NCBI GenBank assembly: GCA_944321505.1
Contig: CALULN010000027.1
Location: 10,672-74,671 of the forward strand
Direction: 5' to 3'
DNA length: 64,000 nucleotides
From: Candidatus Methanomethylophilaceae archaeon
GTDB taxonomy: Archaea; Thermoplasmatota; Thermoplasmata; Methanomassiliicoccales; Methanomethylophilaceae
The notes under the pieces are model-generated. The model searched no databases. It was not told where the DNA came from and worked only from the letters and a program-made list of their open reading frames with translations. Both the position numbers and the translations under genes were made by a program. Of the stretch, positions 1 through 48,269 are shown piece after piece. Position 1 is the first letter of the stretch. Each line of letters begins with the position of its first letter.

Positions 1-33
1 CCATTGACTCCGGTTCAAATCCGGGGGGGCCCA
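1..33 (+). tRNA. 3' end of a tRNA gene cut by the window edge (T-arm plus 3' acceptor strand); identity unknown
   Basis: T-stem/loop TCCGG-TTCAAAT-CCGGG at 9-25, then the 7-nt acceptor strand GGGGCCC and discriminator A (26-33). The anticodon lies outside the window. Confidence 0.6.
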
Positions 34-40
34 CTCATCC
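21..40 (+). repeat. Direct repeat copy 1 (tRNA 3' end plus 7 nt of flank)
   Basis: CCGGGGGGGCCCACTCATCC. It matches 2022-2041 at 18/20, and its core matches 5111-5124 at 13/14. Confidence 0.6.
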
Positions 41-107
41 CATTTGTTATGATCATATCTCCGATTCGCACCCTCGAATGTTCCATCACTCGCGTGTCCA
101 ACGGCAC

Positions 108-1214
108 TCACTCGTTTTCAGGCCCTATGAATGTGACATCATCATAAAACAGAGTCTTATCTATGACGTTAGATTCCTGGAAATAAATCTCCGTACCCCC
201 GTATGTTATGTCACCCAACCCTGCAGGACTTTCGAACATCACAAAAGCCGTGACTCCGAATTCCTTGAAGTCGTACCCGGACAGAATCTGCGAATAGTGT
301 TCTGAACTCTGATTAATGTATGTTTCCAGATCCAACATCAGTTGGACATAACAGCTGGCTTCTGGCTTGAGATGATTCTCATTTCTGAAATTATCCCCTG
401 TTTCCCCAGTAGCGACTTCTTTAGCTTTTTGCATTAGTTCGTCGACATTCGTCTCTATCGAAGATGTCCCTCCGAAGATGGGATTTGAGAAAACGGAATG
501 GGACACAACAATGACATTGTGCCGACGATTGATGTGGATGCAAACATCATCTGATTGGAATACTGGTTCAAGACCAATGGCGAACGGTGACATCGACTCA
601 GGCATGCTTCTGTCGTATTCTACAATACATTTGCGAATCACATCGCACATTCTCGAATCATCAATGAGCATCGAATACACACTGGCGTAAGTCATCTCAT
701 CTTTGCTGATGTCACGGAAATTCAGTGGATGGCCTGCCTGTTTGGCCAGCTGTTCGATGAACTTTCTTTGTGTGCGGCCATTGCCTTCCCTAAACGGATG
801 TATCGCATTGATCTCTCCGAGATAATACGCCAGTTTTGGTATGATCGTATCCTCATCCATGTCACGAAGCATATTGTCACGAGCGAGTTCTGAGAACAGC
901 CTGTCTGCATTTTCCAGGATATACTCGCATCTACAGAACTCGGTTTTCCCTTTGGCTATCTGGACCGTACGGATCTCACCCGCCCATTCGAAGATGTCTC
1001 CGAATATCCTGCGGTGTATCTCCCTCAGGTGATCGAAATCGAAATTCCCATTTACCGGGTTGGAGTCAAGTTCGACCATGCGGAGTATCGTGATTGTGGC
1101 TTCTGCGCGTGAAAACTCTTCGGAATCTCTGATACCGAGTTTGTTTTTCAGAACATCAGACCCAGAATAACAGTATATCCCGTCATCCTCATAGAAATAA
1201 TCGTTGTCACTCAT
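108..1214 (-). CDS. Fic/Fido-domain protein (class I Fic toxin-like N-terminal half; C-terminal ~170 aa unassigned)
   Basis: 368-aa ORF with the canonical Fic motif HPFREGNGRTQR (HxFx[DE]GNGRxxR). ATG at 1214-1212. A VbhA-like ORF lies immediately upstream and overlaps it. Confidence 0.85.
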   Translation of the reverse strand: MSDNDYFYEDDGIYCYSGSDVLKNKLGIRDSEEFSRAEATITILRMVELDSNPVNGNFDFDHLREIHRRIFGDIFEWAGEIRTVQIAKGKTEFCRCEYILENADRLFSELARDNMLRDMDEDTIIPKLAYYLGEINAIHPFREGNGRTQRKFIEQLAKQAGHPLNFRDISKDEMTYASVYSMLIDDSRMCDVIRKCIVEYDRSMPESMSPFAIGLEPVFQSDDVCIHINRRHNVIVVSHSVFSNPIFGGTSSIETNVDELMQKAKEVATGETGDNFRNENHLKPEASCYVQLMLDLETYINQSSEHYSQILSGYDFKEFGVTAFVMFESPAGLGDITYGGTEIYFQESNVIDKTLFYDDVTFIGPENE

Positions 1215-1377
1215 GGATTGTTTTGTGCTGCATTATGATAGACTTCACTGCATCATCATATGACAGCTCTCCGCGCATGCATCTGCGCAGGAGCATCCTG
1301 TCCTCCTCTGTGACATGAAGTCCCTCCATCTCAACAGAAGCCACAGCATTGTCGATCCTGAAGTCGGTTCCATTCAT
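1207..1377 (-). CDS. VbhA-family antitoxin of the Fic toxin (56 aa, below the ORF-track length cut-off)
   Basis: My own translation: MNGTDFRIDNAVASVEMEGLHVTEEDRMLLRRCMRGELSYDDAVKSIIMQHKTIHE. It carries the inhibitory [ST]xxxE[GN] motif (SVEMEG) and a GEL...D..V tail as in VbhA. Its TGA (1209-1207) lies 8 nt inside the Fic ORF. Confidence 0.75.
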   Translation of the reverse strand: MNGTDFRIDNAVASVEMEGLHVTEEDRMLLRRCMRGELSYDDAVKSIIMQHKTIHE

Positions 1378-1429
1378 TTTACTCTCTTTGAGAATGGCTT
1401 CAGAGCTATATTTTGTTATTCGAGGATGT

Positions 1430-1840
1430 TCAGATATCGACGTGATACAGGACCTTGGACTCTAATCTGTTCCAACCGCATCGCCGATACCCCCTCATCC
1501 TCCTGAGTACCTTGTCCATGTCGATTTCCTTCTTCGGGACCTCGACACCTTCCAGGGCCTCGGACATCCTGCACAGGAATCTGCCGAAACTTCCTATGAG
1601 GTCCCCGTCCACCATGAAGACAATCTTCGGAATCGGGTCCAGATAGGTCTGCGACCCCTTGTCGAAGGGGGTCACAAGCTTCAGGGCCTTGAACAGGTGG
1701 CCCTCCCTGAAGGACATCAGGGTCTCCTTCCTCGGTTGCCTCGACACAGGCTCCGCCTGTCCGAGCAGCTCCATCGCTCTCGCTACGATCTCATCTACCA
1801 TCGTATGCTCCTTGTCTGTCAGCCTGACAAAGGCAGGCAT
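1430..1840 (-). CDS. Hypothetical protein, possible ribbon-helix-helix N-terminus
   Basis: The track ORF 1430..1870 begins at GTG. The first ATG (1840) gives MPAFVRLTDKEHTMVDEIVARA..., which resembles an RHH/MobC-type start. The rest has no motif I recognise. Confidence 0.4.
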   Translation of the reverse strand: MPAFVRLTDKEHTMVDEIVARAMELLGQAEPVSRQPRKETLMSFREGHLFKALKLVTPFDKGSQTYLDPIPKIVFMVDGDLIGSFGRFLCRMSEALEGVEVPKKEIDMDKVLRRMRGYRRCGWNRLESKVLYHVDI

Positions 1841-2021
1841 CGGCTTCCGGCTATGACGCGGAGCTACCACGGTCCGGTAGTCTTTCGTTCAATTGGGTTT
1901 TAAATCGGAACCACACCTGCGGAGCCACCGTTCCTGGATGGGTTCTGCTGAACCGGTATGCCGGGAAACCAGGCCCCGCATTCGATTCCCAAGGGCCTTG
2001 CTGGCAAGAAGGGGAGTGAAG

Positions 2022-4226: not shown

Positions 4227-5050
4227 ACCGTCACATGCACTCTCGGAGACGCATGAGGCTGGTCTTCGCCTTCCTGTCGGCGATCTTCGCGGCACTGACA
4301 TCCGTTTTCGCGAAGATCGGCATCAAGGATGTAGAGTCCGACCTGGCCACCGCTCTCCGCACCGTCGTGGTTCTGGCAATGGCATGGCTGATGGTGCTTG
4401 TCGTCGGCTCGTACGATACCATCGACGACATATCCGACCGCACGCTGGCCTTCCTAATCCTGTCCGGCATGGCCACCGGCGCCTCGTGGCTGTGCTTCTA
4501 CCGCGCGCTGCAGGAGGGCCCGGCATCTATGGTCGCCCCCATAGACAAGCTGAGCATACTGTTCACCGTCATCTTCGCGGTCATCGTGCTGAAGGAGCGC
4601 ATGTCGCGCAGGTCGCGGGCAGGCCTGGCCCTCCTGGTCGCAGGCACCATGGCGATGCTGCTCTGGCGCGATCCGACCGATCCGGAGCCGGGGGGTGTTA
4701 CCGCATATAATCCCGATTACATGTTCGTCCCACTCCGTACGGACGTATTCCGAACGGCATCCGGTCGGTATCCTCCTTCCGGAACGTATCGAAGGGCCGG
4801 AACTCAGGAGGATGGCCGGCGACGGCGCATACCGCCGCGGAATTTCCATGAGACGGCGATCATGGAAGGGGCCGGCGGCTGCCAGAGGCTGGACTTGCTT
4901 CCGCACAGGTCCGCGCCAAGGGATTCTGCAAGAGAGGCTGATGCACCGTCTGCGTGGACGAGTGCACGGATGTGCACTGTCCCGCACAGGGATGCGGAAG
5001 AATCCGGAATCGCCATATCAAGAAGGCGATTATCCATTCTGACCCTATGA
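4223..5050 (+). CDS. Small EamA/DMT-family transporter (~4 TM); the ORF runs on into a decayed GNAT gene
   Basis: The EamA-like part is MRLVFAFLSAIFAALTSVFAKIGIK...LLVAGTMAMLLW (alternative ATG at 4253; domain ends about 4680). The remaining ~120 codons are non-membrane, low-quality sequence that overlaps the GNAT relic. Confidence 0.7.
   Translation: MNRHMHSRRRMRLVFAFLSAIFAALTSVFAKIGIKDVESDLATALRTVVVLAMAWLMVLVVGSYDTIDDISDRTLAFLILSGMATGASWLCFYRALQEGPASMVAPIDKLSILFTVIFAVIVLKERMSRRSRAGLALLVAGTMAMLLWRDPTDPEPGGVTAYNPDYMFVPLRTDVFRTASGRYPPSGTYRRAGTQEDGRRRRIPPRNFHETAIMEGAGGCQRLDLLPHRSAPRDSAREADAPSAWTSARMCTVPHRDAEESGIAISRRRLSILTL
4715..5035 (+). pseudogene. Decayed GNAT acetyltransferase paralog of 2249..2680
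   Basis: Fragments spread over three frames match the intact GNAT: LRTDVF / LRREVF, ARGW / ARGW, AQVRAKGF (DNA caggtccgcgccaaggg in both copies), and MRKNPESP / MRKNLESP. Confidence 0.6.
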
Positions 5051-5110
5051 ACTCGGGTATGAGCCCGACGTCATCGGGTTGGAGTTTTTGACGTTCCTGT
5101 CTGCCTCATT

Positions 5111-5124
5111 GGAGCCCACTCATC
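5111..5124 (+). repeat. Direct repeat copy 3 (short) of the tRNA 3'-end segment
   Basis: GGAGCCCACTCATC, against GGGGCCCACTCATC at 26-39 (13/14). Confidence 0.4.
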
Positions 5125-5379
5125 GGACTCCTGCGGCATGAATGACGCGGCAGATATTGCGAGACAACATACACGTGCAGATCGGCCGATGGTGACCCGG
5201 GAAGCAGCCTCTGATGATTGATCCGGGGTTCAAACCAGATGTGTACCGAAAATCAGATTATGCGGCTGCCGGGCCCAGCCGCTTGAAACATCGACCCGCC
5301 CATTTGCGATCTGAACGGTCGCATCGTAGTGTCATGACACACATGTTTCTTCTTTACGAATGTTGTTATTGCAAAACGT

Positions 5380-5398
5380 GTTGGATGTATCATCCAAT
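5380..5398. promoter_or_regulatory. Inverted repeat GTTGGATG-TAT-CATCCAA abutting the ATG of 5397..5825
   Basis: Perfect 7-8 bp arms. The same palindrome is found at 6340-6358 next to the start of the convergent gene. Confidence 0.55.
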
Positions 5399-5825
5399 GC
5401 AAACTACCCCCCGCACCGAAGCAAACGTTCCGGCCGCCCGCATCAATGATCATTGCGAGTGTTTAAGATGCGGCAAGGTGTGGAAAAGCAAAAAGAAGGT
5501 TCCGACAAGGTGCCCGAAATGCGGAACCAAGTACTGGAACACACCGGTCAAAGAATTCTCATGCAGAAGATGCGGGCATTCATGGAAAGCACGGATCATG
5601 GATTATCCGAACATCTGCCCATGCTGCAAAAGCCACAGATGGGACCGGCCGTCGACCGAGTTCGCAGTTCAACGCGACGTTATAGACGAAGACGAGGTGC
5701 TGGATTTGTACCAGAACGGTCAAGGACTCGTATCCATATCAATAAAGACCGGATTCAGCATCGACAGAGTGATGGGTGTGCTTAGGAGAAATCAGAAAGA
5801 CTGCAGAATCAGCATCAGGATCTGA
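5397..5825 (+). CDS. Protein with two zinc-ribbon repeats and a C-terminal resolvase-like HTH
   Basis: Two modules: CLRCGKVWKSKKKVPTRCPKCGTKYW and CRRCGHSWKARIMDYPNICPCCKSHRW. They are followed by DEVLDLYQNGQGLVSISIKTGFSIDRVMGVLRR. I chose the start at ATG 5397 because the shared palindrome abuts it; the track ORF starts at 5214. Confidence 0.6.
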   Translation: MQTTPRTEANVPAARINDHCECLRCGKVWKSKKKVPTRCPKCGTKYWNTPVKEFSCRRCGHSWKARIMDYPNICPCCKSHRWDRPSTEFAVQRDVIDEDEVLDLYQNGQGLVSISIKTGFSIDRVMGVLRRNQKDCRISIRI

Positions 5826-6339
5826 CCTTCCAACGGACGGTCTTGCATGAAGGGCACCGGCGCGCGGAATCCCCGTTCTTGGAGAACCAGCTGTGCCCGC
5901 ATTTCTGACACTTGTTGAAGCCGCCCTCAGAGTCCCATCTGAGACTCTGACAGGAGGGGCATCTCTTCGGCTGCGCCACCTGTTTGATCCAATGATGGCC
6001 GCAGATCCTGCAGACTGCGGATTCCGGATCCTTGAACCACGAGTCCGAATGACATGAAGGACATCTTATCGGCGTCCTATCGCTGCGTGGGACCCAGCTG
6101 TATCCACAGCGGCGACAGCATAACTCCGTACGGACGGGAGAAGCGCCGCAAACCGGACAGATGGAAGAAGGGGACATATGATACTCGGTGCCGCAGATCC
6201 TGCAGACTACCTTGCCGGCCCCTTCGGCCCACCGGGCCGTATGACAACTGGGACACCGCTTCGGCATCCCATCCCCGCTAGGCACCCATGCGTGCCCGCA
6301 TCTGCTGCAGCAGAGGAAACACGTCTCCCCCTCTTCCAT
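5815..6339 (-). CDS. Protein made of five tandem zinc-ribbon repeats
   Basis: Modules: CSRCGHAWVPSGDGMPKRCPSCHTARW, CRICGTEYHMSPSSICPVCG, CRRCGYSWVPRSDRTPIRCPSCHSDSW, CRICGHHWIKQVAQPKRCPSCQSLRW, CQKCGHSWFSKNGDSARRCPSCKTVRW. ATG 6339 is preceded by the palindrome and by a TTTATAAT box (6361-6368). The track ORF starts at 6495. Confidence 0.6.
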   Translation of the reverse strand: MEEGETCFLCCSRCGHAWVPSGDGMPKRCPSCHTARWAEGAGKVVCRICGTEYHMSPSSICPVCGASPVRTELCCRRCGYSWVPRSDRTPIRCPSCHSDSWFKDPESAVCRICGHHWIKQVAQPKRCPSCQSLRWDSEGGFNKCQKCGHSWFSKNGDSARRCPSCKTVRWKVRS

Positions 6340-6358
6340 GTTGGATGATGCATCCAAC
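6340..6358. promoter_or_regulatory. Inverted repeat GTTGGATG-ATG-CATCCAAC abutting the ATG of 5815..6339
   Basis: Perfect 8-bp arms. It lies between a TTTATAAT box (minus strand, 6368-6361) and the ATG at 6339. Confidence 0.55.
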
Positions 6359-6652
6359 TCATTATAAACAAAACCCAGATTGGATAGATGCTTACCAAAG
6401 ACACAGCATACCCGCATCGCAATCGGTCTTTCCGATGCATATCGTCCCCGCATCGTATTCGGACAGACGATGCCCGTCTCCGACTCCGAATCCACACCGG
6501 AATTTCATGTGCCCACACTGCGCACCATGCCTCGGACCGGCATCCCCGGGGATCCAGCCCCGATGCGGCACCATCTGCATTAAATATCGGAACCAGAATA
6601 GAATCGCCGGTTATATGTCAGATGGAATTTCTGAAGGTAACGGTGCGTAAAG

Positions 6653-40690: not shown

Positions 40691-42345
40691 GGGGCATCAA
40701 CGAGAGGTACGTGGAGGAGACCTACGGGGACGACGGGATCCTCCGCGAGATGAAGATACACTACCCGGAGAACTACAACTTCGGCTACGACATCGTCGAC
40801 GACATCGCAATCAACGACCCCGACAGGACGGCCCTGGTCTGGGACAGCTGCCACGAGGCCGAACGCAGATTCACCTTCGCAGACATCAAGAGGCTCAGCG
40901 ACAAGACCGCCAACTACCTGGCGTCCCTGGGCATCGGCAAAGGCGACATGGTCCTGATGATCATGAAGCAGAGGTACCAGTTCTGGTACACCATCGTCGC
41001 CCTCCACAAGCTGGGCGCCGTGGCGATCCCCGCGACGTACATGCTGACGAAGCACGACATCGAGTACCGCGTCAGGGCCGCCGGGATCAAGGCGATCATC
41101 TGCACCGACCAGACACCCGTGTCCAAGGCGGTGGAGGCGTCGGACATACCCGAGGTGAAGATCAGGATCCTGGTGGGCGAACCCCGCGAGGGATGGCTGG
41201 ACTTCGACGCCGGTGTCGAGGCCGCGTCCGAGGAGCTGGAGCGCAGGGACACCAAGGCAACGGAGCCGTTCCTCATGTACTTCACATCCGGCACCTCCGA
41301 CAACCCCAAGATGGTGCTCCATGACCACACGTACTCCCTGGGGCACATCCTCACCGCCAAGCACTGGCACAGGGTGGATCCGGAGGGTCTGCACTTCACC
41401 GTCAGCGACACCGGATGGGGCAAGGCCGTCTGGGGCAAGCTCTACGGCCAGTGGATCATGGAATCGGCGGTGTTCGTGTACGAGTACGACAAGTTCAACC
41501 CGTCCGACATCCTCGACATGATCGAGAAGCACAGGATCACATCCCTCTGCTGTCCCCCGACCATGTTCAGGCTCTACATCAACGCCGGGCTGGAGGGCCA
41601 CGACCTGTCGTCCCTGAAGCACTGCAATATCGCAGGCGAGGCGCTGAACCCCGACACCTTCGAGACCTGGAGGAAGGCCACCGGCCTGACCCTCATGGAG
41701 GGGTTCGGACAGACCGAGACTACGCTGACCGTGGCCACCATCGACGGGATGGAGGCCAAGCCCGGGTCCATGGGCAAACCCTCCCCGCAGTTCAAGGTGG
41801 ACATCGTGGACGAGAACGGCAGGCACTGCCCCGCCGGAGTCCCCGGCGAGATCGTCGTGTCCATCGAGCCCAAGGTCCCCGGGATCATGATGGGCTACTA
41901 CCGCGACCCGGAGAAGACCGCCGCCACCCTGAGGGATGGATGGCACCACACCGGCGACGTGGCATGGAGGGACGAGGACGGCTACTTCTGGTACGTCGGC
42001 AGGAACGACGACATCATCAAGTCCTCCGGCTACAGGATCAGCCCCTTCGAGATCGAGAGCGCCCTCATGCTGCACCCCTCTGTCCTGGAGTGCGCCGTCA
42101 CCGGCGTCCCCGACCCCGTGCGCGGGCAGATCATCAAAGCGACCATCGTCCTCAGGGAAGGCTGGGAGCCCTCCGACGCCCTCAAGAAGGAGATACAGGA
42201 TTTCACCAAGAAGGAGACCGCCCCGTACAAGTACCCCCGGGCGGTGGAGTTCGTTAAGGAGCTGCCCAAGTCCATCAGCGGCAAGGTCCGCAGGGTGGAG
42301 ATCCGCAACAGGGACATCGAGGATGCGAAAAACCGCGGCAACTGA
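40687..42345 (+). CDS. AMP-forming acyl-CoA synthetase (medium-chain/ACSM-like), paralog 1
   Basis: AMP-binding motifs YFTSGTSDNPK, GDVAWRDEDGYFWYVGRNDDIIKSSGYRISPFEIES and a C-terminal SGKVRR. ATGA overlap with the regulator gene. Confidence 0.9.
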   Translation: MRGINERYVEETYGDDGILREMKIHYPENYNFGYDIVDDIAINDPDRTALVWDSCHEAERRFTFADIKRLSDKTANYLASLGIGKGDMVLMIMKQRYQFWYTIVALHKLGAVAIPATYMLTKHDIEYRVRAAGIKAIICTDQTPVSKAVEASDIPEVKIRILVGEPREGWLDFDAGVEAASEELERRDTKATEPFLMYFTSGTSDNPKMVLHDHTYSLGHILTAKHWHRVDPEGLHFTVSDTGWGKAVWGKLYGQWIMESAVFVYEYDKFNPSDILDMIEKHRITSLCCPPTMFRLYINAGLEGHDLSSLKHCNIAGEALNPDTFETWRKATGLTLMEGFGQTETTLTVATIDGMEAKPGSMGKPSPQFKVDIVDENGRHCPAGVPGEIVVSIEPKVPGIMMGYYRDPEKTAATLRDGWHHTGDVAWRDEDGYFWYVGRNDDIIKSSGYRISPFEIESALMLHPSVLECAVTGVPDPVRGQIIKATIVLREGWEPSDALKKEIQDFTKKETAPYKYPRAVEFVKELPKSISGKVRRVEIRNRDIEDAKNRGN

Positions 42346-42501: not shown

Positions 42502-44148
42502 ATGCGGAACATCAACCAGAGGTACATACGGGAGGCCTTCGACAGCGACGGGATCCTGGAGAACCTCAGGATCGTATGCCCCGACGACTTCAACTTCGGA
42601 TACGACATCGTCGACGACATCGCCGTCAACGACCCCACCCGCCGCGCGCTGGTGTGGCAGCACGAGAACGGCGAGGAGAGGACCTTCACCTTCGCCGACA
42701 TCAAGAGGCTCAGCAACAAGACCGCCAACTACCTCACATCCAAGGGGATAAAGAAGGGCGACTTCGTCATGCTGATCCTGAAGCACAGCTACCAGTTCTG
42801 GTACATATCGGTGGCATTGCACAAGATGGGCGCAGTGGTGGTCCCGGCGACGTACATGCTCAAGCCCCACGACATCGAGTACCGCGTGAAGGCCGCCGAC
42901 ATCAAAGCCGTCATGGTTACCCACGAGACGGACATCGCCGACCAGGTGGATGCGGCCAGCACCCCCGGCCTCGACCTCAAGTTCATGGTCGGAGGCAGCA
43001 GGGAGGGATGGCTGGACTTCGACGCGGAGATGGAGGAGGCCTCGGAGGAATGGGAGAGGGTCCCAACCAGGAAGGAGGACTACTTCCTCATGTACTTCAC
43101 GTCAGGCACATCCGGCAACCCCAAGATGGCCATGCACGACTACACATACCCTCTCGGGCACATACTCCTGGCCAAGTACTGGCACCAGGTGGACCCCGAG
43201 GGGCTGCACTGGTCGGTGGCGGACACCGGATGGGCGAAGAACGCCTGGGGCAAGCTCTACGGCCAGTGGATCATGGAGGCTGCGGTGTTCGTGTACGAGT
43301 ACGACAAGTTCGAGCCCTCCGACATCCTCGACATGATCGAGAAGCACAAGATAACCACGTTCTGCTGCCCTCCCACCATGTTCCGCCTCTACCTGCAGGC
43401 AGGCATCGAGGGACACGACCTGTCGACCCTGAAGAACTGCTGCATCGCCGGAGAGGCCCTGAACCCCGACACCTACGAGACCTGGTACAAGGCCACCGGC
43501 CTCAGGCTCATGGAGGCGTTCGGGCAGTCCGAGTCCACGGTCATCGTGGGCACCATCAAAGGCATGACCCCCAAGCCCGGGTCCATGGGCAGGCCGTCCC
43601 CCCAGTTCAGGGTCGAGCTGCTGGACGGCGAGGGCAAGAGGGTCCCCCTGGGAGCCGAGGGCGAGATCTGCGTCAGCATAGACCCGCGCATCCCGGGCAT
43701 ATTCAAGGAGTACTACCGCGACCCGGAGAAGACCGCGGCGACGCTGTATGACGGCTGGCACCACACCGGCGACATGGCCTGGAAGGATGCGGACGGCTAC
43801 TACTGGTACTCCGGCCGCAACGACGACATCATCAAATCATCCGGCTACAGGATCAGCCCCTTCGAGATCGAGAGCGTGCTCCTGGAGCACCCCGGCGTCC
43901 TGGAGTGCGCCGTCACCGGCGTCCCCGACCCCATCAGGGGGCAGCTGGTGAAAGCCACCGTTGTCCTCAGACCTGGATTCGAGCCCTCCGACGCCCTCAA
44001 GAAGGAGCTCCAGAGGTACACGAAGCAAAACACCGCCCCCTACAAGTACCCCAGAGCGGTGGAGTTCGTGAAGGAGCTGCCCAAGTCCATGAGCGGGAAG
44101 ATCAAAAGAGTGGATATAAGGAAGAAGGACGCCGAGAAGGCGTCCTGA
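42502..44148 (+). CDS. AMP-forming acyl-CoA synthetase, paralog 2 (tandem duplicate)
   Basis: Collinear with 40687..42345 along its whole length (YFTSGTSGNPK, GDMAWKDADGYYWYSGRNDDIIKSSGYRISPFEIES). It has its own AT-rich 156-bp upstream region. Confidence 0.9.
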   Translation: MRNINQRYIREAFDSDGILENLRIVCPDDFNFGYDIVDDIAVNDPTRRALVWQHENGEERTFTFADIKRLSNKTANYLTSKGIKKGDFVMLILKHSYQFWYISVALHKMGAVVVPATYMLKPHDIEYRVKAADIKAVMVTHETDIADQVDAASTPGLDLKFMVGGSREGWLDFDAEMEEASEEWERVPTRKEDYFLMYFTSGTSGNPKMAMHDYTYPLGHILLAKYWHQVDPEGLHWSVADTGWAKNAWGKLYGQWIMEAAVFVYEYDKFEPSDILDMIEKHKITTFCCPPTMFRLYLQAGIEGHDLSTLKNCCIAGEALNPDTYETWYKATGLRLMEAFGQSESTVIVGTIKGMTPKPGSMGRPSPQFRVELLDGEGKRVPLGAEGEICVSIDPRIPGIFKEYYRDPEKTAATLYDGWHHTGDMAWKDADGYYWYSGRNDDIIKSSGYRISPFEIESVLLEHPGVLECAVTGVPDPIRGQLVKATVVLRPGFEPSDALKKELQRYTKQNTAPYKYPRAVEFVKELPKSMSGKIKRVDIRKKDAEKAS

Positions 44149-44149
44149 T

Positions 44150-44464
44150 TCACTCGAAAGAGAAGGACACATCCTTCTTCAGTGCGAGCTCGCCCGCGGC
44201 CTCCGCCGCCTTTATCATAGCGCACGGCACGGGGCAGGACACGTGCTCCAGCTCCGCACAGGCGGAGTACACCGCGTTCTCCGTGAAGGGCTTGGCGATG
44301 GCATCGAACACCGGCACCGGGCCGATCTCCTTGCATACCGCCCTGACGGCGGGGCACTCGCTCTTGACCTTGAACGAGATGTCCATGTTCTCGTCCATGG
44401 AAGCGGTGATGACGGTCTTGAATCTGCACACTCCAGCATCAACGTTCACTGTAGCGTCTGCCAT
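44150..44464 (-). CDS. Small Cys-containing protein of unknown function, tightly coupled to the radical SAM gene
   Basis: MADATVNVDAGVCRFKTVITASMDENMDISFKVKSECPAVRAVCKEIGP...SACAELEHVSCPVPCAMIKAAE, with six Cys. The ATG at 44464 is 5 nt after the rSAM stop. The track start 44473 is a TTG overlapping that stop. Confidence 0.55.
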   Translation of the reverse strand: MADATVNVDAGVCRFKTVITASMDENMDISFKVKSECPAVRAVCKEIGPVPVFDAIAKPFTENAVYSACAELEHVSCPVPCAMIKAAEAAGELALKKDVSFSFE

Positions 44465-44469
44465 ATGGA

Positions 44470-45612
44470 TCAATAGGGCGTAACAACGTTAGGATTTGTC
44501 AATTTTCCTACGACCGCATCCCTCACGAACCTGTTGTACGACGACAGGTCCTTCCTGCCGTCGATTATGTCCGCCACAGAATCCCGGATGTGCGGGAAGA
44601 TGATCCTGTAGGACTCGCAGGAGAAGAACCCTGACTCGCCGATCCCGCCCTCGGCGGCGGCATCGATGCTGCATCCGCCGGCGCACTGCGTGAATATGGG
44701 GCAGCTGCGGCATCTCTCCCTGCGCTCGATGGATCCCACCAGCACCTTCCTGAAACCGTCGGAGGAGAACAGCTCGGAGATCGAATCGACATCCATGATG
44801 TTGCCCATCCTGTACTCCGGCGGACAGGGCTTGGAGCAGGGATAGACGTCGCCGTTGGGCTCCACGGAGATCCACCTGGTCAGACACGACGCGTGGGCGC
44901 AGTCGGAGATGTTGGGCTCGGACAGGGAGGCCCTGAGGTACTGGTAGAACGGCAGCACGGGTATGGGTGCGGACGCGTCGGTGAGCCACTCGTCGAAGAG
45001 GGCGATGCACGCCTCTGCGTACTCCTGCGGGGACATCCACAGGTCGCTCTCCGGACATCCGATCATGCGGAGGGCGGGGCTGCAGTAGAACGCTATCCCG
45101 CGGTCCCGGAAGAAGCGGTACATCTCGTGCATCCTGCCGATGTTGCCGGAATGTATGCTGGAGATCACGGAGAACATGTGCCCCTTCTTCGACATCATGG
45201 AGAGGACCGACTCCACCTTCGCCCGGTCTATGCCGGGGCGCAGGCCGGCATCGCAGCCGCCTTCGAAGGACACACCGACGTTGATCCGGGCGTCCCTGCA
45301 GAACTCGAGGAACCTGGGCGTGAGCAGGAGCCCGTTGGTCTGTATGGTGTTGCCGCACCTGCCGATGGCCTTCCCGTAGGCTTCCTTCTGGCAGGCCCTG
45401 GCCCTCTTGAAGAAGCGCTCGCCGGCGAGAAGGGGCTCGCCTCCCGTCCAGAGGTACCTGGCGGAATCATACTCGGCGCGGACCATGCCGACGGTCTTCT
45501 CCACGACGGACATGTCCATGACGCCGCTGCCGTCGTCATGGCTGTAGCAGTGCCTGCAGTGAGCGTTGCAGGACAGCGTCGGCTTCATAACAACCAACAG
45601 GAACGGCTTCAT
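44470..45612 (-). CDS. Radical SAM enzyme with C-terminal SPASM domain (peptide/protein-modifying maturase type)
   Basis: CNAHCRHC (CxxxCxxC) at residues 16-23. GGEPLL. C-terminal auxiliary-cluster cysteines CAHASC...YPCSK...CRSCPIFTQCAGGC. Confidence 0.9.
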   Translation of the reverse strand: MKPFLLVVMKPTLSCNAHCRHCYSHDDGSGVMDMSVVEKTVGMVRAEYDSARYLWTGGEPLLAGERFFKRARACQKEAYGKAIGRCGNTIQTNGLLLTPRFLEFCRDARINVGVSFEGGCDAGLRPGIDRAKVESVLSMMSKKGHMFSVISSIHSGNIGRMHEMYRFFRDRGIAFYCSPALRMIGCPESDLWMSPQEYAEACIALFDEWLTDASAPIPVLPFYQYLRASLSEPNISDCAHASCLTRWISVEPNGDVYPCSKPCPPEYRMGNIMDVDSISELFSSDGFRKVLVGSIERRERCRSCPIFTQCAGGCSIDAAAEGGIGESGFFSCESYRIIFPHIRDSVADIIDGRKDLSSYNRFVRDAVVGKLTNPNVVTPY

Positions 45613-45655
45613 AGCCTCGCCTGACAGTCAGCTGCGGATGGGCAGCCAATGGCGC

Positions 45656-45916
45656 TCAGAAGGGCCAGTAGCAGTAGTCGCAGCAGGTCCCGTCGGTGCC
45701 GTAGGCGCAGCACACGAGCACGACCACGATGAGTGCCAGGAGCTCAACGGCGCAGTGGGCTCCGCAACAGGGGTAGCATCCGGGAGTGCCGTAGTGAGGA
45801 TCGTCCTCAACCTCGTGTCCGGTGGGGGGGTTGTAGACGATCTGCGAGCTCGCAGGCATAGCCTGGGCGATGTAGTCCTCGGTCAGCTCCTGGGTGGATT
45901 TCTCTTCGTTGCTCAT
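45656..45916 (-). CDS. 86-aa Cys-rich small protein, candidate substrate/precursor of the adjacent radical SAM enzyme
   Basis: MSNEEKSTQELTEDYIAQAMPASSQIVYNPPTGHEVEDDPHYGTPGCYPCCGAHCAVELLALIVVVLVCCAYGTDGTCCDYCYWPF, with 9 Cys in the last 41 residues. GGTGA-type SD 6 nt upstream of ATG 45916. Its stop is 43 nt before the rSAM ATG. Confidence 0.55.
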   Translation of the reverse strand: MSNEEKSTQELTEDYIAQAMPASSQIVYNPPTGHEVEDDPHYGTPGCYPCCGAHCAVELLALIVVVLVCCAYGTDGTCCDYCYWPF

Positions 45917-46006
45917 ACGCTCACCAATATCGGGCCTCAAACGCCCGATTGAATGTCACGGGATGCCCATGGACATATTTTAAAGTGATGGGGTCATCCA
46001 GCCAGC

Positions 46007-46927
46007 ATGTTCGGGTATGCGGTGCCTGTGGACATGACGCTCTCCGGTGCGGACGCCGCGGCGTACCGCGGATACTACTGCGAGACCTGCCATCAGCTCA
46101 GGGACTGCTACGGCGTGATGTCCGCGATCATAGTCAGCTACGAGATGACCTTCGCATCCATCCTCCTGAACTCGGTGTCCTCCGACGGTGTGGACGTCCA
46201 GGAGCCGAGGGCCGGACCGCTCTGCGTGCTCCGCCACGCCTCCCGCAGGACAGGGCTCCTCAGGAAGCTCGCCGCATACTCCGTCCTGGTGACCAACAAC
46301 GACCTCATAGACGACAGACTGGACGGCGCCACCGTGAAGACCAACCTCGGCCTCCTGTGGATGAACCACTCCATCGAGAGAGCCAGACGCGACTTCCCCG
46401 AGTACGACCGCCTCATAATGGACGGATACGCCGGACTGCGGGAGAAGGAGGCCGCCGGATGCTCGGACCCGGTGGAGATGGGGTACGCCTCCGCCGCCAG
46501 CATGGTCGGTGTCATGAGGCTCATGAACGGGGAGGAATGGACGCCGGTCCTGGAGAGGCTGTTCCTCAACCTCGGCGCCTGGGTCTACATAATGGACGCC
46601 ATCGACGACCTGGACGAGGACCATGAGAAGGGGCAGTACAACCCGTTCCTGGCAGGGGCCTCGGAGTTCAACGGCGCCCGGAACTTCGTCACGTCCAACA
46701 TCTACACGATATCGGATGCCGTACGCACCGTGGTGGGTGAGATACAGAGCGCCTACTCGGAGCTGCGCCCGTCCATGGTCAGGAACACCGGCATCTGCGA
46801 CAACATCGTCTACCAGGGGATCCCCACCACCGTGCGCCTGGTGATGGACGGCAGGTCCAGGATGAAGCCCACCCTGACCGACATGATCGGCGGCAAGGTG
46901 AACCGCACCATCGGCTCTCAGTTCTGA
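46007..46927 (+). CDS. DUF5685-like protein (family assignment from memory)
   Basis: The N-terminus MFGYAVPVDMTLSGADAAAYRGYYCETCHQL matches my recollection of the MFGY...Y..YYCG.C signature. An AT-rich box (ACATATTTTAAAG, 45974-45986) lies about 26 nt upstream of the ATG. Confidence 0.5.
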   Translation: MFGYAVPVDMTLSGADAAAYRGYYCETCHQLRDCYGVMSAIIVSYEMTFASILLNSVSSDGVDVQEPRAGPLCVLRHASRRTGLLRKLAAYSVLVTNNDLIDDRLDGATVKTNLGLLWMNHSIERARRDFPEYDRLIMDGYAGLREKEAAGCSDPVEMGYASAASMVGVMRLMNGEEWTPVLERLFLNLGAWVYIMDAIDDLDEDHEKGQYNPFLAGASEFNGARNFVTSNIYTISDAVRTVVGEIQSAYSELRPSMVRNTGICDNIVYQGIPTTVRLVMDGRSRMKPTLTDMIGGKVNRTIGSQF

Positions 46928-47451
46928 CGGTTCACCACGTCTATGTGGATGTTCTCCATGACATCCAGCGCCTTCGAGTTCATCTCCGGGTCAGGGGATG
47001 CGGTGCATGCCGCATCCACCACGATCCTCGCCTCCGGGAACGCCGCCTTCAGTATCACGGCGTTGGACAGCACGCACATGCTGCCCACCAGCCCGCAGAG
47101 CTCGATCTGGTCGAACCGCCCCTGATAGAACGACAGCCTCGCCGCCAGGTCCTCCGAGCCGAAGCGGTCCTTGACCACCGTGTTCCCCTCGTTGCAGTAC
47201 CTGGCCACCGAGCCGTATATGGCGGAGCCCTCCTCGTCCACGCAGTGGGGAACGGGGAGCCTCCTCCCCTCCTGAGTGCACGGGTAGCGGTCGGCATCAT
47301 GCATGTCCTTGGTGAACACCACCATATCCCCGTTGGAGACGTACTCCCTGACCTTGGCCTCGATGGGGCCTTCCAATGCGGCGGCCTCCGGGAACCCCAG
47401 GGCGCCGTCGACGAAATCCTTCTGGAAATCAACCACTACCAGGACCCGCAT
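46918..47451 (-). CDS. Isochorismatase-family hydrolase (nicotinamidase/PncA-like)
   Basis: MRVLVVVDFQKDFVDG...ELCGLVGSMCV, with the Asp, Lys and Cys catalytic-triad context of cysteine hydrolases. Confidence 0.8.
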   Translation of the reverse strand: MRVLVVVDFQKDFVDGALGFPEAAALEGPIEAKVREYVSNGDMVVFTKDMHDADRYPCTQEGRRLPVPHCVDEEGSAIYGSVARYCNEGNTVVKDRFGSEDLAARLSFYQGRFDQIELCGLVGSMCVLSNAVILKAAFPEARIVVDAACTASPDPEMNSKALDVMENIHIDVVNRQN

Positions 47452-47522
47452 GCACCTCCATGACCGCGGGCGTATTTAACCGGCAGGCAAGCGAATTATA
47501 CCGCCCCGACATTGGATGCCCC

Positions 47523-48269
47523 ATGGGGAAGTACAACGCCGACATCCTCTCTTTCGTCGAGGACAGGAAGGTCATCGAGTTCGACATCGGCCGCCCGCGC
47601 AAGATCACCGGATCCAGGATCGCGGCCATCCTCGGCATGAACGAGTACACCACCCCGTTCAAGGCCGCCTGCGAGATGGTGGGCCTGTGGAAGGAGCCTC
47701 CGTCCAAGTTCACCGAAGCGGGCAACGTGATGGAGCCGAAGATCCGCGGATATGTGCGCGACCATGCGGAGGAGCTCATCGGAGAGGCCCTCGGCGACGG
47801 AGTGATCGGTGTGGAGGACCCCGTTCCCGCCCGGGAATGCGGGTTCGAGCACTTCCCCGGGAAAGAACCGTTCGGAGGGATGGTGGACGGCTACGTCACC
47901 GTCGACGGGAGGAGGGCCGCCGTTCTGGAGATCAAGACCGCCAGCAGGAAGGACGGATGGTTCGGCACCGACGGGTCGCCTGAGGTCCCCTTCGGCTACG
48001 TGCTCCAGGCATCCCTGTACTGCGAACTGTCGGGCCTGGGCAGGATAGTGTTCGCCGCAGGGTTCCCGGAGGCATCCGACTACGAGGACCCGGAGTCCTG
48101 GGAGCCCTGTCCGGAGAACACGGCGGTCCGCATCGTCAGCGCCTACCTCATGAGGGCCATGATGGACGAGGCCGTGACCTGGTACAACAGATACATCCGC
48201 AGAGGCATCACTCCGCCATGGACCGACAGGGACACGGAACTGGTGGAGGCGCTGCTCTCCCGCTACTGA
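47523..48269 (+). CDS. YqaJ-like (lambda-exonuclease fold, PD-(D/E)XK) viral-type recombinase nuclease
   Basis: ITGSRIAAILGMNEYTTPFKAACEMVG...GMVDGYV...LEIKTAS, the motifs of the YqaJ family. ATG at 47523, about 26 nt downstream of GAATTATA. Confidence 0.75.
   Translation: MGKYNADILSFVEDRKVIEFDIGRPRKITGSRIAAILGMNEYTTPFKAACEMVGLWKEPPSKFTEAGNVMEPKIRGYVRDHAEELIGEALGDGVIGVEDPVPARECGFEHFPGKEPFGGMVDGYVTVDGRRAAVLEIKTASRKDGWFGTDGSPEVPFGYVLQASLYCELSGLGRIVFAAGFPEASDYEDPESWEPCPENTAVRIVSAYLMRAMMDEAVTWYNRYIRRGITPPWTDRDTELVEALLSRY

Follow-up and report, generated by a model that had tools for sequence, protein, structure and literature searches.

A small cysteine-string protein, a radical SAM/SPASM enzyme and a DUF5685 protein form a conserved candidate modification module in Methanomassiliicoccales

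Introduction

Several described systems pair a radical S-adenosylmethionine (rSAM) enzyme that carries a SPASM domain with a substrate made by the ribosome. Enzymes of the darobactin type create a bond between an aromatic ring and the beta-carbon located two residues further along (PMC10125368). The SCIFF/ranthipeptide and sactipeptide systems encode a Cys-rich substrate beside the rSAM/SPASM enzyme, and in the QhpC/QhpD pair a rSAM/SPASM enzyme cross-links a small Cys-rich subunit, which stays in the cell as a functional component instead of being secreted. In archaea, rSAM clusters for peptides that ribosomes make and that are modified after translation (RiPPs) have been described solely as predictions made in bulk by antiSMASH and are largely uncharacterized (PMC12144867). 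Here we describe a locus in a 64,000-nucleotide stretch of DNA from a Candidatus Methanomethylophilaceae archaeon (contig CALULN010000027.1), the whole of which is referred to below as the window. In this locus, the gene for a small cysteine-string protein directly precedes the gene for a rSAM/SPASM enzyme and is divergent from a gene for a protein of the DUF5685 family.

Two further systems provide points of comparison for the DUF5685 protein. ComQ is an isoprenyl transferase of the polyprenyl-synthase fold that prenylates a Trp residue of the ribosomal peptide ComX. The cysteine string of eukaryotic proteins such as DNAJC5 is S-palmitoylated by membrane enzymes of the DHHC type. Members of Methanomassiliicoccales, the order that hosts the locus, are methanogens of the gut and rumen whose membrane energy metabolism is atypical and incompletely understood. 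We propose, with a probability of roughly 55%, that the three genes constitute an order-wide module for the production of a small protein that is post-translationally modified, retained by the cell and probably associated with the membrane.

Results

Three genes are linked across the order

An earlier note, which was made from the letters of this DNA, described three open reading frames (ORFs) in a row on the minus strand of the window, and their coordinates and features all hold on re-reading. The first ORF encodes 86 amino acids (45656..45916), was established by reading the ORF and by its homologs, and is the presumed substrate. The second encodes a rSAM/SPASM enzyme of 380 amino acids (44470..45612), begins 43 nt 3′ of the small-ORF stop, and exceeds the Pfam cut-offs for both the Radical_SAM (PF04055; 47.5 bits versus 29.5) and SPASM (PF13186; 35 bits versus 21.5) domains. 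The third, which encodes a DUF6951 protein, is discussed further below. On the plus strand, a divergent gene (46007..46927) encodes a 306-amino-acid protein that scores 163.4 bits with the DUF5685 model (PF18937; gathering cut-off 26.7).

We read the loci of 10 lineages (the window, L001, L095, L002, L004/5, L006, L008, L096, L097 and L098), among which are both families that the NCBI taxonomy names in Methanomassiliicoccales. A scan of genome contigs with the single rSAM sequence had yielded one close syntenic locus, L001, from an uncultured Methanomassiliicoccales archaeon, and the loci of the further lineages were taken from contigs encoding homologs. A Cys-rich ORF of 86 to 116 amino acids ends 7 to 52 nt 5′ of the rSAM start in each of the 10 lineages, with rSAM identities reaching down to 40%. 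This ORF had been left out of the gene calls in two of them. In nine lineages, the DUF5685 gene is divergent from the small ORF with a spacer of 81 to 128 nt; in L004, an insertion with two DUF1016-type genes places DUF5685 1.9 kb from the small ORF. The pairwise identities of the small ORF, the rSAM enzyme and DUF5685 co-vary over the 10 lineages (Spearman coefficients of 0.52–0.77), and an outer synteny of HTS, PALP, CobA, MFS and cation efflux genes recurs in both families. Because of this linkage, the co-varying identities and the shared outer synteny, we conclude that the small ORF, the rSAM gene and the DUF5685 gene are a vertically inherited three-gene module of Methanomassiliicoccales. 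The joint travel of the small ORF and the rSAM/SPASM ortholog, which the earlier note had named as a check, is therefore a property of both families.

An order-wide module with a strongly conserved “core” is unlike the patchy, hypervariable clusters that are typical of RiPP antibiotics, a point that had previously been missed. That no protease or exporter is apparent in the cluster had been recognized, and the called genes of the 10 archaeal loci likewise include no protease, exporter or sulfatase family.

The divergent spacer of the window is 90 nt long and includes a TATA-like box (45975..45984; TTTAAAATAT on the minus strand) that is located approximately 22 nt from the DUF5685 ATG and 68 nt 5′ of the small-ORF ATG. 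The former distance suggests that the DUF5685 mRNA may be leaderless. Seven loci with spacers of 81 to 96 nt have a single TATA-like box at 20 to 31 nt from the DUF5685 ATG and 55 to 68 nt from the small-ORF ATG, and the loci with spacers of 127 to 128 nt (L002 and L097) have a separate box for each gene. Given this divergent pairing across a short spacer with a TATA box that is conserved in relatives, the co-regulation of the two genes that was originally proposed from the single AT-rich box is a reasonable idea.

The small ORF is a gene under purifying selection

The 86-amino-acid protein is composed of an N-terminal conserved helix (ELTEDYIAQAMPA), an acidic linker, the array C-x2-CC-x3-C, a hydrophobic segment, CCAYGTDG, CCDYC and a terminal YWPF. 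Its last 41 residues (GCYPCCGAHCAVELLALIVVVLVCCAYGTDGTCCDYCYWPF) hold nine Cys residues, arranged as C-x2-CC-x3-C, CC and CC-x2-C. The hydrophobic stretch, previously given as 17 residues, is present, but its uninterrupted run comprises 13 residues (between Cys55 and Cys69) and reaches approximately 17 only if flanking Cys and Ala residues are counted. No model in Pfam or NCBIfam matches the protein.

Homologs are found in 15 database clusters at 50 to 99% identity, wherein the C-terminal half is near-invariant (…CCAYGTDGTCCDYCYWPF) and the N termini are variable, acidic and Thr-rich. Between the window and L001, 17 codons of the small ORF differ synonymously and nine nonsynonymously, corresponding to a ratio of nonsynonymous to synonymous substitution rates (dN/dS) of 0.11 for the whole ORF and 0.026 for its C-terminal half. 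In addition, a GGTGA Shine–Dalgarno-like site (45921..45925, minus strand) is located 4 nt 5′ of the ATG, and a GGTGA or GGTGG sequence is kept 4 to 5 nt 5′ of the small-ORF ATG in nine of nine loci read, including the window. The position of this site favors the ATG at 45916 over an upstream TTG at 45940 as the start codon. The homolog clusters, the low dN/dS and the conserved GGTGA site and TATA box together establish that the nine-Cys ORF is a real gene under purifying selection.

Members of the family are 86 to 116 amino acids in length and share a consensus that begins with an N-terminal helix, L(T)..Y..QS.PA.F, and an acidic linker. After the linker come C.Y.CC..(G)CC, then a hydrophobic segment rich in Cys, Val and Gly, and then CC(C/A/H)(Y/H).T(D/N/E)G. 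The Cys-rich hydrophobic segment, which includes 9 to 12 Cys residues, has a maximal Kyte–Doolittle value over 19 residues that ranges from 1.7 to 2.65 across the family. Most lineages then end in W.(Y/F)WP(F/N), and the sub-lineage of the window ends in CCDYCYWPF, such that the archaeal C termini read YWPF, YWPN, FWPF or FWPN. The residues that are invariant throughout the order are the paired Cys residues, whose conservation the earlier note had marked for examination, together with T-x-G and (Y/F)-W-P-(F/N)-COOH.

The rSAM enzyme resembles peptide and protein maturases

The Radical_SAM domain of the 380-amino-acid enzyme spans residues 10 to 143. Its CX3CX2C motif (CNAHCRHC) occupies residues 15 to 22, and C15, C19 and C22 are nearly invariant among orthologs. 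Because this motif begins at residue 15, the enzyme could not accommodate an N-terminal RiPP recognition element (RRE), the PqqD-like domain with which sactipeptide maturases bind the leader. The SPASM auxiliary-cluster domain had been described as full, and its Cys set is indeed complete (C238, C243, C259, C301, C304, C310, C314 and C332) and invariant among orthologs. The orthologs form approximately 130 clusters at 40 to 98% identity, beyond which identity falls abruptly to 33%. All ortholog clusters that are named by source belong to Methanomassiliicoccales, where they represent Methanomethylophilaceae, Methanomassiliicoccaceae, Methanoplasma and strain BRNA1.

Subfamily calls were made by comparing the score of the enzyme with the curated cut-off of each NCBIfam equivalog model, and the enzyme remains far below every one of these cut-offs. 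The best-scoring models are those for DynA (NF041298; 163.9 bits versus 450), anaerobic sulfatase-maturating enzymes (anSMEs; TIGR03942, 141.1 bits versus 349.45) and TIGR04083 (136 bits versus 300), which describe peptide or protein maturases. A second anSME model (NF010321) gives 105.3 bits versus 441, and the DarE model (NF038005) gives 79.5 bits versus 650. The enzyme belongs to the anSME/DynA-like branch. The closest solved structure is also an anSME (PDB 4K36; E 3e-30), which aligns from end to end. It resembles the archaeal enzyme in its architecture with two auxiliary clusters and in acting on a protein without an RRE. Residues C276-D277 of anSME align with Cys-Ser (PCSKPC) in the window enzyme; Asp277 is the proposed catalytic base of anSME.

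The two nearest relatives outside the archaea, at 33% and 31% identity, are each encoded in a bacterial RiPP cluster (L011 3472-6110 and L100 165-2919) that includes two rSAM/SPASM genes and an ABC exporter. The precursors in these clusters are 53 to 56 amino acids long and contain W-x-N repeats (…CAFPYWGNWGNWSNWGNWNNWSNWYNWWN and …CSFPYWPNWNNWLNWNNWGNWWNR). The repeats start with …FPYWGNW… and …FPYWPNW…, and thus resemble the archaeal C termini YWPF, YWPN and FWPN. Both clusters look like representatives of an uncharacterized darobactin/dynobactin-like class.

The archaeal locus invites comparison with the DarE, DynA and triceptide systems. These systems likewise use a single rSAM/SPASM enzyme lacking an N-terminal RRE, DynA supplies the best-scoring curated model, and the nearest outside relatives of the window enzyme adjoin W-x-N-repeat precursors. 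Moreover, the archaeal protein ends in an aromatic-X-X motif, W-P-(F/N), that is comparable to the site of the i-to-i+2 Trp cross-links of darobactin (PMC10125368). Unlike DarE and DynA, the window enzyme does not approach the family cut-offs. Its presumed substrate is a Cys-rich hydrophobic protein of 86 to 116 amino acids, not a short secreted peptide, no ABC exporter accompanies the genes, and conservation extends over an archaeal order.

DUF5685 is predicted to adopt an isoprenoid-synthase-like fold

DUF5685 is the more informative partner, by virtue of an isoprenoid-synthase fold predicted for it and a link in bacteria to J-domain proteins with Cys strings, a point that the earlier note had missed. 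The invariant positions of the window protein are YCExCH (24–29), C73, DDxxD (102–106), DAxDDLxxD (197–205) and YNP (211–213). Archaeal and bacterial members alike keep DDxxD (102–106), DAxDDxxxD (197–205) and three Cys residues (C25, C28 and approximately C70) without variation. A model made with AlphaFold2 (AF2) from 27 sequences is all-alpha, with a predicted local distance difference test (pLDDT) of 83 and a predicted template-modeling score (pTM) of 0.84, and the Asp-rich motifs sit at the ends of helices 83–105 and 180–208. When the PDB was searched with this model by Foldseek, 48 of the best 50 matches had the class-I isoprenoid-synthase fold and the other two were UbiA-family prenyltransferases. 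The matches include solanesyl- and octaprenyl-diphosphate synthases, the prenyltransferase MoeN5 (template-modeling (TM) scores of 0.52/0.58), terpene synthases and squalene synthases. Thus, a class-I isoprenoid-synthase-like fold is predicted for DUF5685.

The DUF5685 family numbers 4,239 clusters at 50% identity, of which the archaeal clade is a small branch. A metagenome scan provided 80 bacterial loci (L015-L094). In 62 of these, the next downstream gene encodes a member of one family of proteins of approximately 210 amino acids. A downstream gene is present in 66 of the bacterial loci; in 60 of these it lies on the same strand, after a gap of 0 to 60 nt, and specifies a protein of approximately 210 amino acids with between 6 and 11 Cys residues among its last ~35, as exemplified by the tails CDCCMQLWCLDSLCECFGGDLIGCC and CSNCISCCYTYLCVDCLFSLCCGCR. 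Scans of representatives recognized a DnaJ domain at the N terminus, together with TPR repeats. At one such locus (L079), DUF5685 occupies 5001-5804 and the J-protein 5839-6465. In 38 bacterial loci, a multi-pass membrane protein of ~179 amino acids comes next, and Hsp70 does so in six.

A DUF5685 neighbor that ends in a “cysteine string” is thus encountered in both domains of life, and the parallel is architectural only. The bacterial neighbor can be viewed as a prokaryotic look-alike of the eukaryotic cysteine-string proteins, given that it shares with DNAJC5 a J-domain and a terminal string, here of 6 to 11 Cys residues. The analogy with DNAJC5 has bounds and does not imply homology. The archaeal neighbor is a Cys-string protein that lacks a J-domain, the candidate enzyme is soluble and has the predicted isoprenoid-synthase fold, and lipidation would be its presumed activity. 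Similarly, the DUF5685 locus recalls ComQ/ComX in placing a protein of predicted isoprenoid-synthase fold, with two Asp-rich motifs, beside a small ribosomal substrate. Unlike ComQ, DUF5685 has no detected sequence relation to the polyprenyl_synt family and possesses an extra three-Cys site; its presumed targets are Cys strings and not one Trp, and prenylation is a conjecture.

The possibility that the trio as a whole is widespread in bacteria was rejected, as tblastn searches with the window rSAM enzyme, the small ORF and DUF6951 against 81 bacterial DUF5685 loci gave no match. One bacterial protein, P0388 (502 amino acids; L099 173-1681), has DUF5685 at residues 1–240 fused to what corresponds to the C-terminal half of a rSAM/SPASM-type protein. 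This SPASM-like half and the window enzyme's SPASM region share 35% identity over 83 amino acids (E 6e-12), and the gene that comes next encodes an ABC-transporter ATPase. This fusion is a mere hint, as it derives from a single 2-kb contig and may be an assembly artefact. The DUF5685 entries P0258, P0259, P0261 and P0263 were also considered as fusions and look like read-through or frameshift artefacts, such that only P0388 looks real.

DUF6951, cys85 and neighboring genes

The third minus-strand gene of the window (44150..44464) encodes a protein of 104 amino acids with six Cys residues that matches DUF6951 (PF22263; 101.6 bits versus a gathering cut-off of 27). Its ATG lies 5 nt past the rSAM stop, TTG at 44473 is an alternative start, and in the window the gene is probably co-transcribed with the rSAM gene. 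The earlier note had entertained this protein as a cluster member or even the real substrate. However, DUF6951 is encoded near the rSAM gene in only three of the 10 lineages (the window, L001 and L095) and is absent within ±4–5 kb in the other seven. In L095 (5210-7857), a relative at 56% identity, an ORF for a 106-amino-acid Zn-ribbon protein and a 670-amino-acid hydantoinase/oxoprolinase-family gene intervene between the rSAM gene and DUF6951. DUF6951 is therefore a lineage-specific passenger outside the conserved module, and may instead be functionally tied to the hydantoinase-family gene of L095 or to the convergent AMP-binding gene. Searches of PDB sequences and plasmids with DUF6951 returned no relatives.

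A second small Cys-rich family, here called “cys85,” has 78 to 97 amino acids, ~10 Cys residues and no Pfam match, and conforms to KCxxCR(Y/F)CxH..D.W.C…SC.RYRPG.CENC…VCS.YDP. In six lineages its gene is convergent to DUF5685 and overlaps the DUF5685 3′ end (L002 3402-3659; L005 1660-1914; L008 ~2400-2642; L096 ~2435-2683; L097 2379-2615; L098 2266-2559). The window, L001, L095 and L006 lack this gene, a distribution that is roughly complementary to that of DUF6951.

Directly 3′ of the DUF6951 stop, the minus strand can form a GC-rich hairpin of 8 bp (44126..44146; AGGACGCC-UUCUC-GGCGUCCU), followed by a U-rich run. In folding comparisons with shuffled sequences, this hairpin has an energy of -16.3 kcal/mol (z = -5.3), and it shares sequence with the 3′ end of the AMP-binding gene convergent to DUF6951. 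The hairpin likely marks the transcript end of the minus-strand genes, as a putative terminator, and could stop transcription in both directions at the junction of DUF6951 and the AMP-binding gene.

Pfam matches place two AMP-binding acyl-activating enzyme genes, an isochorismatase-family gene, a YqaJ-like gene and a formate/nitrite-type transporter gene in the flanks of the module. The AMP-binding genes (~40700-42345 and 42502-44148, plus strand) are tandem paralogs resembling acyl-CoA synthetases, are convergent with the rSAM operon, and are kept as a pair in L001. The YqaJ-like gene (47376-48269, plus strand), with a viral recombinase/exonuclease domain, lies between the isochorismatase-family and transporter genes; its placement is conserved chromosomal synteny, found likewise in L001 and L095. 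At the far end of the window (1-2000), GC content drops to 0.49 from ~0.60 elsewhere. The Fic-type motif HPFREGNGRTQR in an ORF there (108-1214, minus strand; 368 amino acids) suggests a Fic-domain gene of foreign or mobile origin.

Discussion

In the arrangement that we propose, the substrate would be the cysteine-string protein of 86 to 116 amino acids, whose conserved N-terminal helix probably docks the enzymes and whose C terminus, with the invariant T(D/N/E)G and (Y/F)-W-P-(F/N), would be exposed. The small ORF and the rSAM gene would be co-transcribed from the TATA box that also lies at a leaderless distance from the DUF5685 gene. The rSAM/SPASM enzyme would abstract a hydrogen atom from the substrate and install a cross-link. 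A Trp-centered link, in which the Trp ring is joined to the beta-carbon of residue i+2 within the terminal W-P-(F/N), as in darobactin, dynobactin and triceptides, would be the likeliest product. We favor this link because W-x-N precursors are encoded beside the relatives of the enzyme and because darobactin-type linkages have this geometry. A thioether from Cys to the conserved T(D/N/E) would be the alternative product. DUF5685, in turn, would act on the Cys-rich segment by means of its predicted isoprenoid-synthase fold, its two Asp-rich motifs of the Mg/diphosphate type and its invariant three-Cys site. Its most plausible chemistry would be S-alkylation (prenylation) of Cys, for which it would serve as an S-prenyl transferase assisted by Zn or Cys and supplied with an isoprenoid diphosphate.

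A broader version of this proposal is tentative, and we consider it doubtful as a whole. It holds that DUF5685 may be a hitherto unrecognized protein-cysteine lipid (prenyl) transferase for prokaryotic “cysteine-string” lipidation. Such an enzyme would anchor a J-domain co-chaperone in Clostridia-type bacteria and, together with the rSAM enzyme, build a doubly modified membrane peptide in Methanomassiliicoccales, possibly with a core function in redox or energy metabolism.

Several observations weigh against these proposals. The module is known here from sequences and models alone, and its description as core to the order relies on 10 sampled lineages and ~130 clusters rather than on a census of presence and absence. 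The AF2 model of the small protein, from which we took only hints of secondary structure (helices at 8–19 and 48–72 and a disordered C terminus), has low confidence (pLDDT 63). With regard to the cross-link, the tail in the sub-lineage of the window has a single Trp and extra Cys (CCDYC), so the thioether option stays, and either of the two rSAM enzymes in each outside RiPP cluster could act on the W-x-N motif. With regard to DUF5685, the structural match is weak by score (Foldseek probability ~1, but E values of 7e-3 to 0.3 and TM scores of 0.35–0.58). DUF5685 is also the sole Pfam match of the divergent protein, with no detected homology to polyprenyl_synt, and profile searches of PDB sequences with two DUF5685 alignments returned only antibody and designed-protein noise. 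The bacterial DUF5685 loci lack the rSAM gene, and DUF5685 could therefore act independently of the rSAM product. Finally, hhalign detected no homology between the archaeal Cys segment and the bacterial J-protein tails (E 0.38).

Other explanations for the same genes must be considered. The main rival is a classical secreted RiPP of the ranthipeptide or sactipeptide kind, for which the rSAM enzyme would form Cys thioethers, with removal of the leader and export of the product as an antibiotic or signal. It would fit a short Cys-rich ORF directly 5′ of the rSAM/SPASM gene and a conserved, leader-like N-terminal helix. Many rSAM RiPP clusters have also been predicted in archaea by antiSMASH-type surveys (PMC12144867), and PapB, SCIFF and other thioether maturase models do match the enzyme weakly. 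However, the scores with the SCIFF maturase model (TIGR03974; 54.7 bits versus 425) and the PapB model (NF047865; 67.1 bits versus 340) are far below cut-off, and the peptide belongs to no family, so the SCIFF-like assignment made in the earlier note was not upheld. Also unlike SCIFF and sactipeptide systems, the archaeal genes show a housekeeping-type distribution, include no RRE and specify a substrate with a hydrophobic core (Kyte–Doolittle values as given above). The absence of protease and exporter genes from the called genes of the loci, and vertical inheritance in conserved synteny in both families, also speak against export. Furthermore, the “core” is the most conserved part of the protein and the N terminus the most variable, the inverse of typical antibiotic RiPPs. 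We therefore judge a secreted RiPP to be unlikely. Somewhat less probable still is a precursor from whose C-terminal Tyr/Trp and Cys a peptide-derived redox cofactor or quinone would be made for the unusual energy metabolism of the order, in the manner of pyrroloquinoline quinone (PQQ), mycofactocin or the Cys-Trp quinone of QhpC/QhpD. Housekeeping-type conservation, the invariant C-terminal aromatic motif, the lack of an exporter and a rSAM/SPASM enzyme like PqqE, MftC and QhpD agree with such a precursor, and retention in the cell, as we presume for the archaeal protein, is a trait of QhpC. Nevertheless, the matches to the MftC (44.5 bits versus 265) and QhpD (34 bits versus 453) models are weak, and the archaeal loci contain no amine dehydrogenase subunits or other dehydrogenase client gene, no RRE or PqqD-like chaperone and no peptidase. 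The long conserved Cys-rich hydrophobic segment would also be needless for a small excised cofactor.

The small protein might instead be a metal- or Fe-S-binding membrane protein for which the rSAM enzyme and DUF5685 serve as assembly or insertion factors that make no covalent modification. Its 9 to 12 Cys residues in CC and CxxCC arrays, and the presence of other small Cys-rich proteins nearby (DUF6951 or cys85), would be expected under this explanation. Adjacent Cys-Cys pairs are poorly suited as ligands of a cluster when they lie within a hydrophobic helix, the closest rSAM relatives all modify side chains of peptides or proteins, and the C-terminal motif that lacks Cys is invariant; on these grounds such a role is rather improbable. 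That DUF6951 is the true substrate of the rSAM enzyme has in its favor six Cys residues and an ATG immediately past the rSAM stop in the window. We regard it as very improbable, given the absence of DUF6951 from the vicinity of the rSAM gene (±4–5 kb) in seven of 10 lineages, the two intervening genes of L095 and the linkage of the small ORF in all 10. Still more remote is a role of the enzyme as an anSME, i.e., a formylglycine synthase, without any relation to the small ORF. The structural match to 4K36 and the name “arylsulfatase regulator” given to the BRNA1 ortholog by one database source favor this assignment. In contrast, both anSME models remain below their equivalog cut-offs, Ser occupies the position of Asp277, and the small protein lacks a C/S-x-P/A-x-R motif. 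A consistent linkage of rSAM homologs to sulfatases in place of the small ORFs, which would have spoken for an anSME, is not what we found: the called genes of the 10 loci include no sulfatase family, and the small ORF is there in every case.

The proposal of a modified, cell-retained small protein thus concerns a product of a known kind, namely a ribosomal product modified by a rSAM/SPASM enzyme. What is new is its housekeeping-type conservation in an archaeal order and its partner of predicted isoprenoid-synthase fold that is tied to cysteine strings. Within the papers that it covered, a literature search found no functional study of DUF5685, DUF6951, the rSAM peptide or rSAM clade of Methanomassiliicoccales, or bacterial cysteine-string J-proteins. 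If the proposal is true, archaea would possess a family of rSAM-modified ribosomal products that is retained in the cell and conserved like a housekeeping gene. There would be a first functional handle on DUF5685, with its >4,000 clusters at 50% identity, and multi-cysteine lipidation in prokaryotes would become directly testable. Enzyme discovery would gain a novel combination of modifications, in which a rSAM enzyme and an enzyme resembling prenyl synthases act on one substrate. For Methanomassiliicoccales themselves, an order-specific modified membrane peptide would be a concrete candidate for a component or a marker of their energy metabolism.

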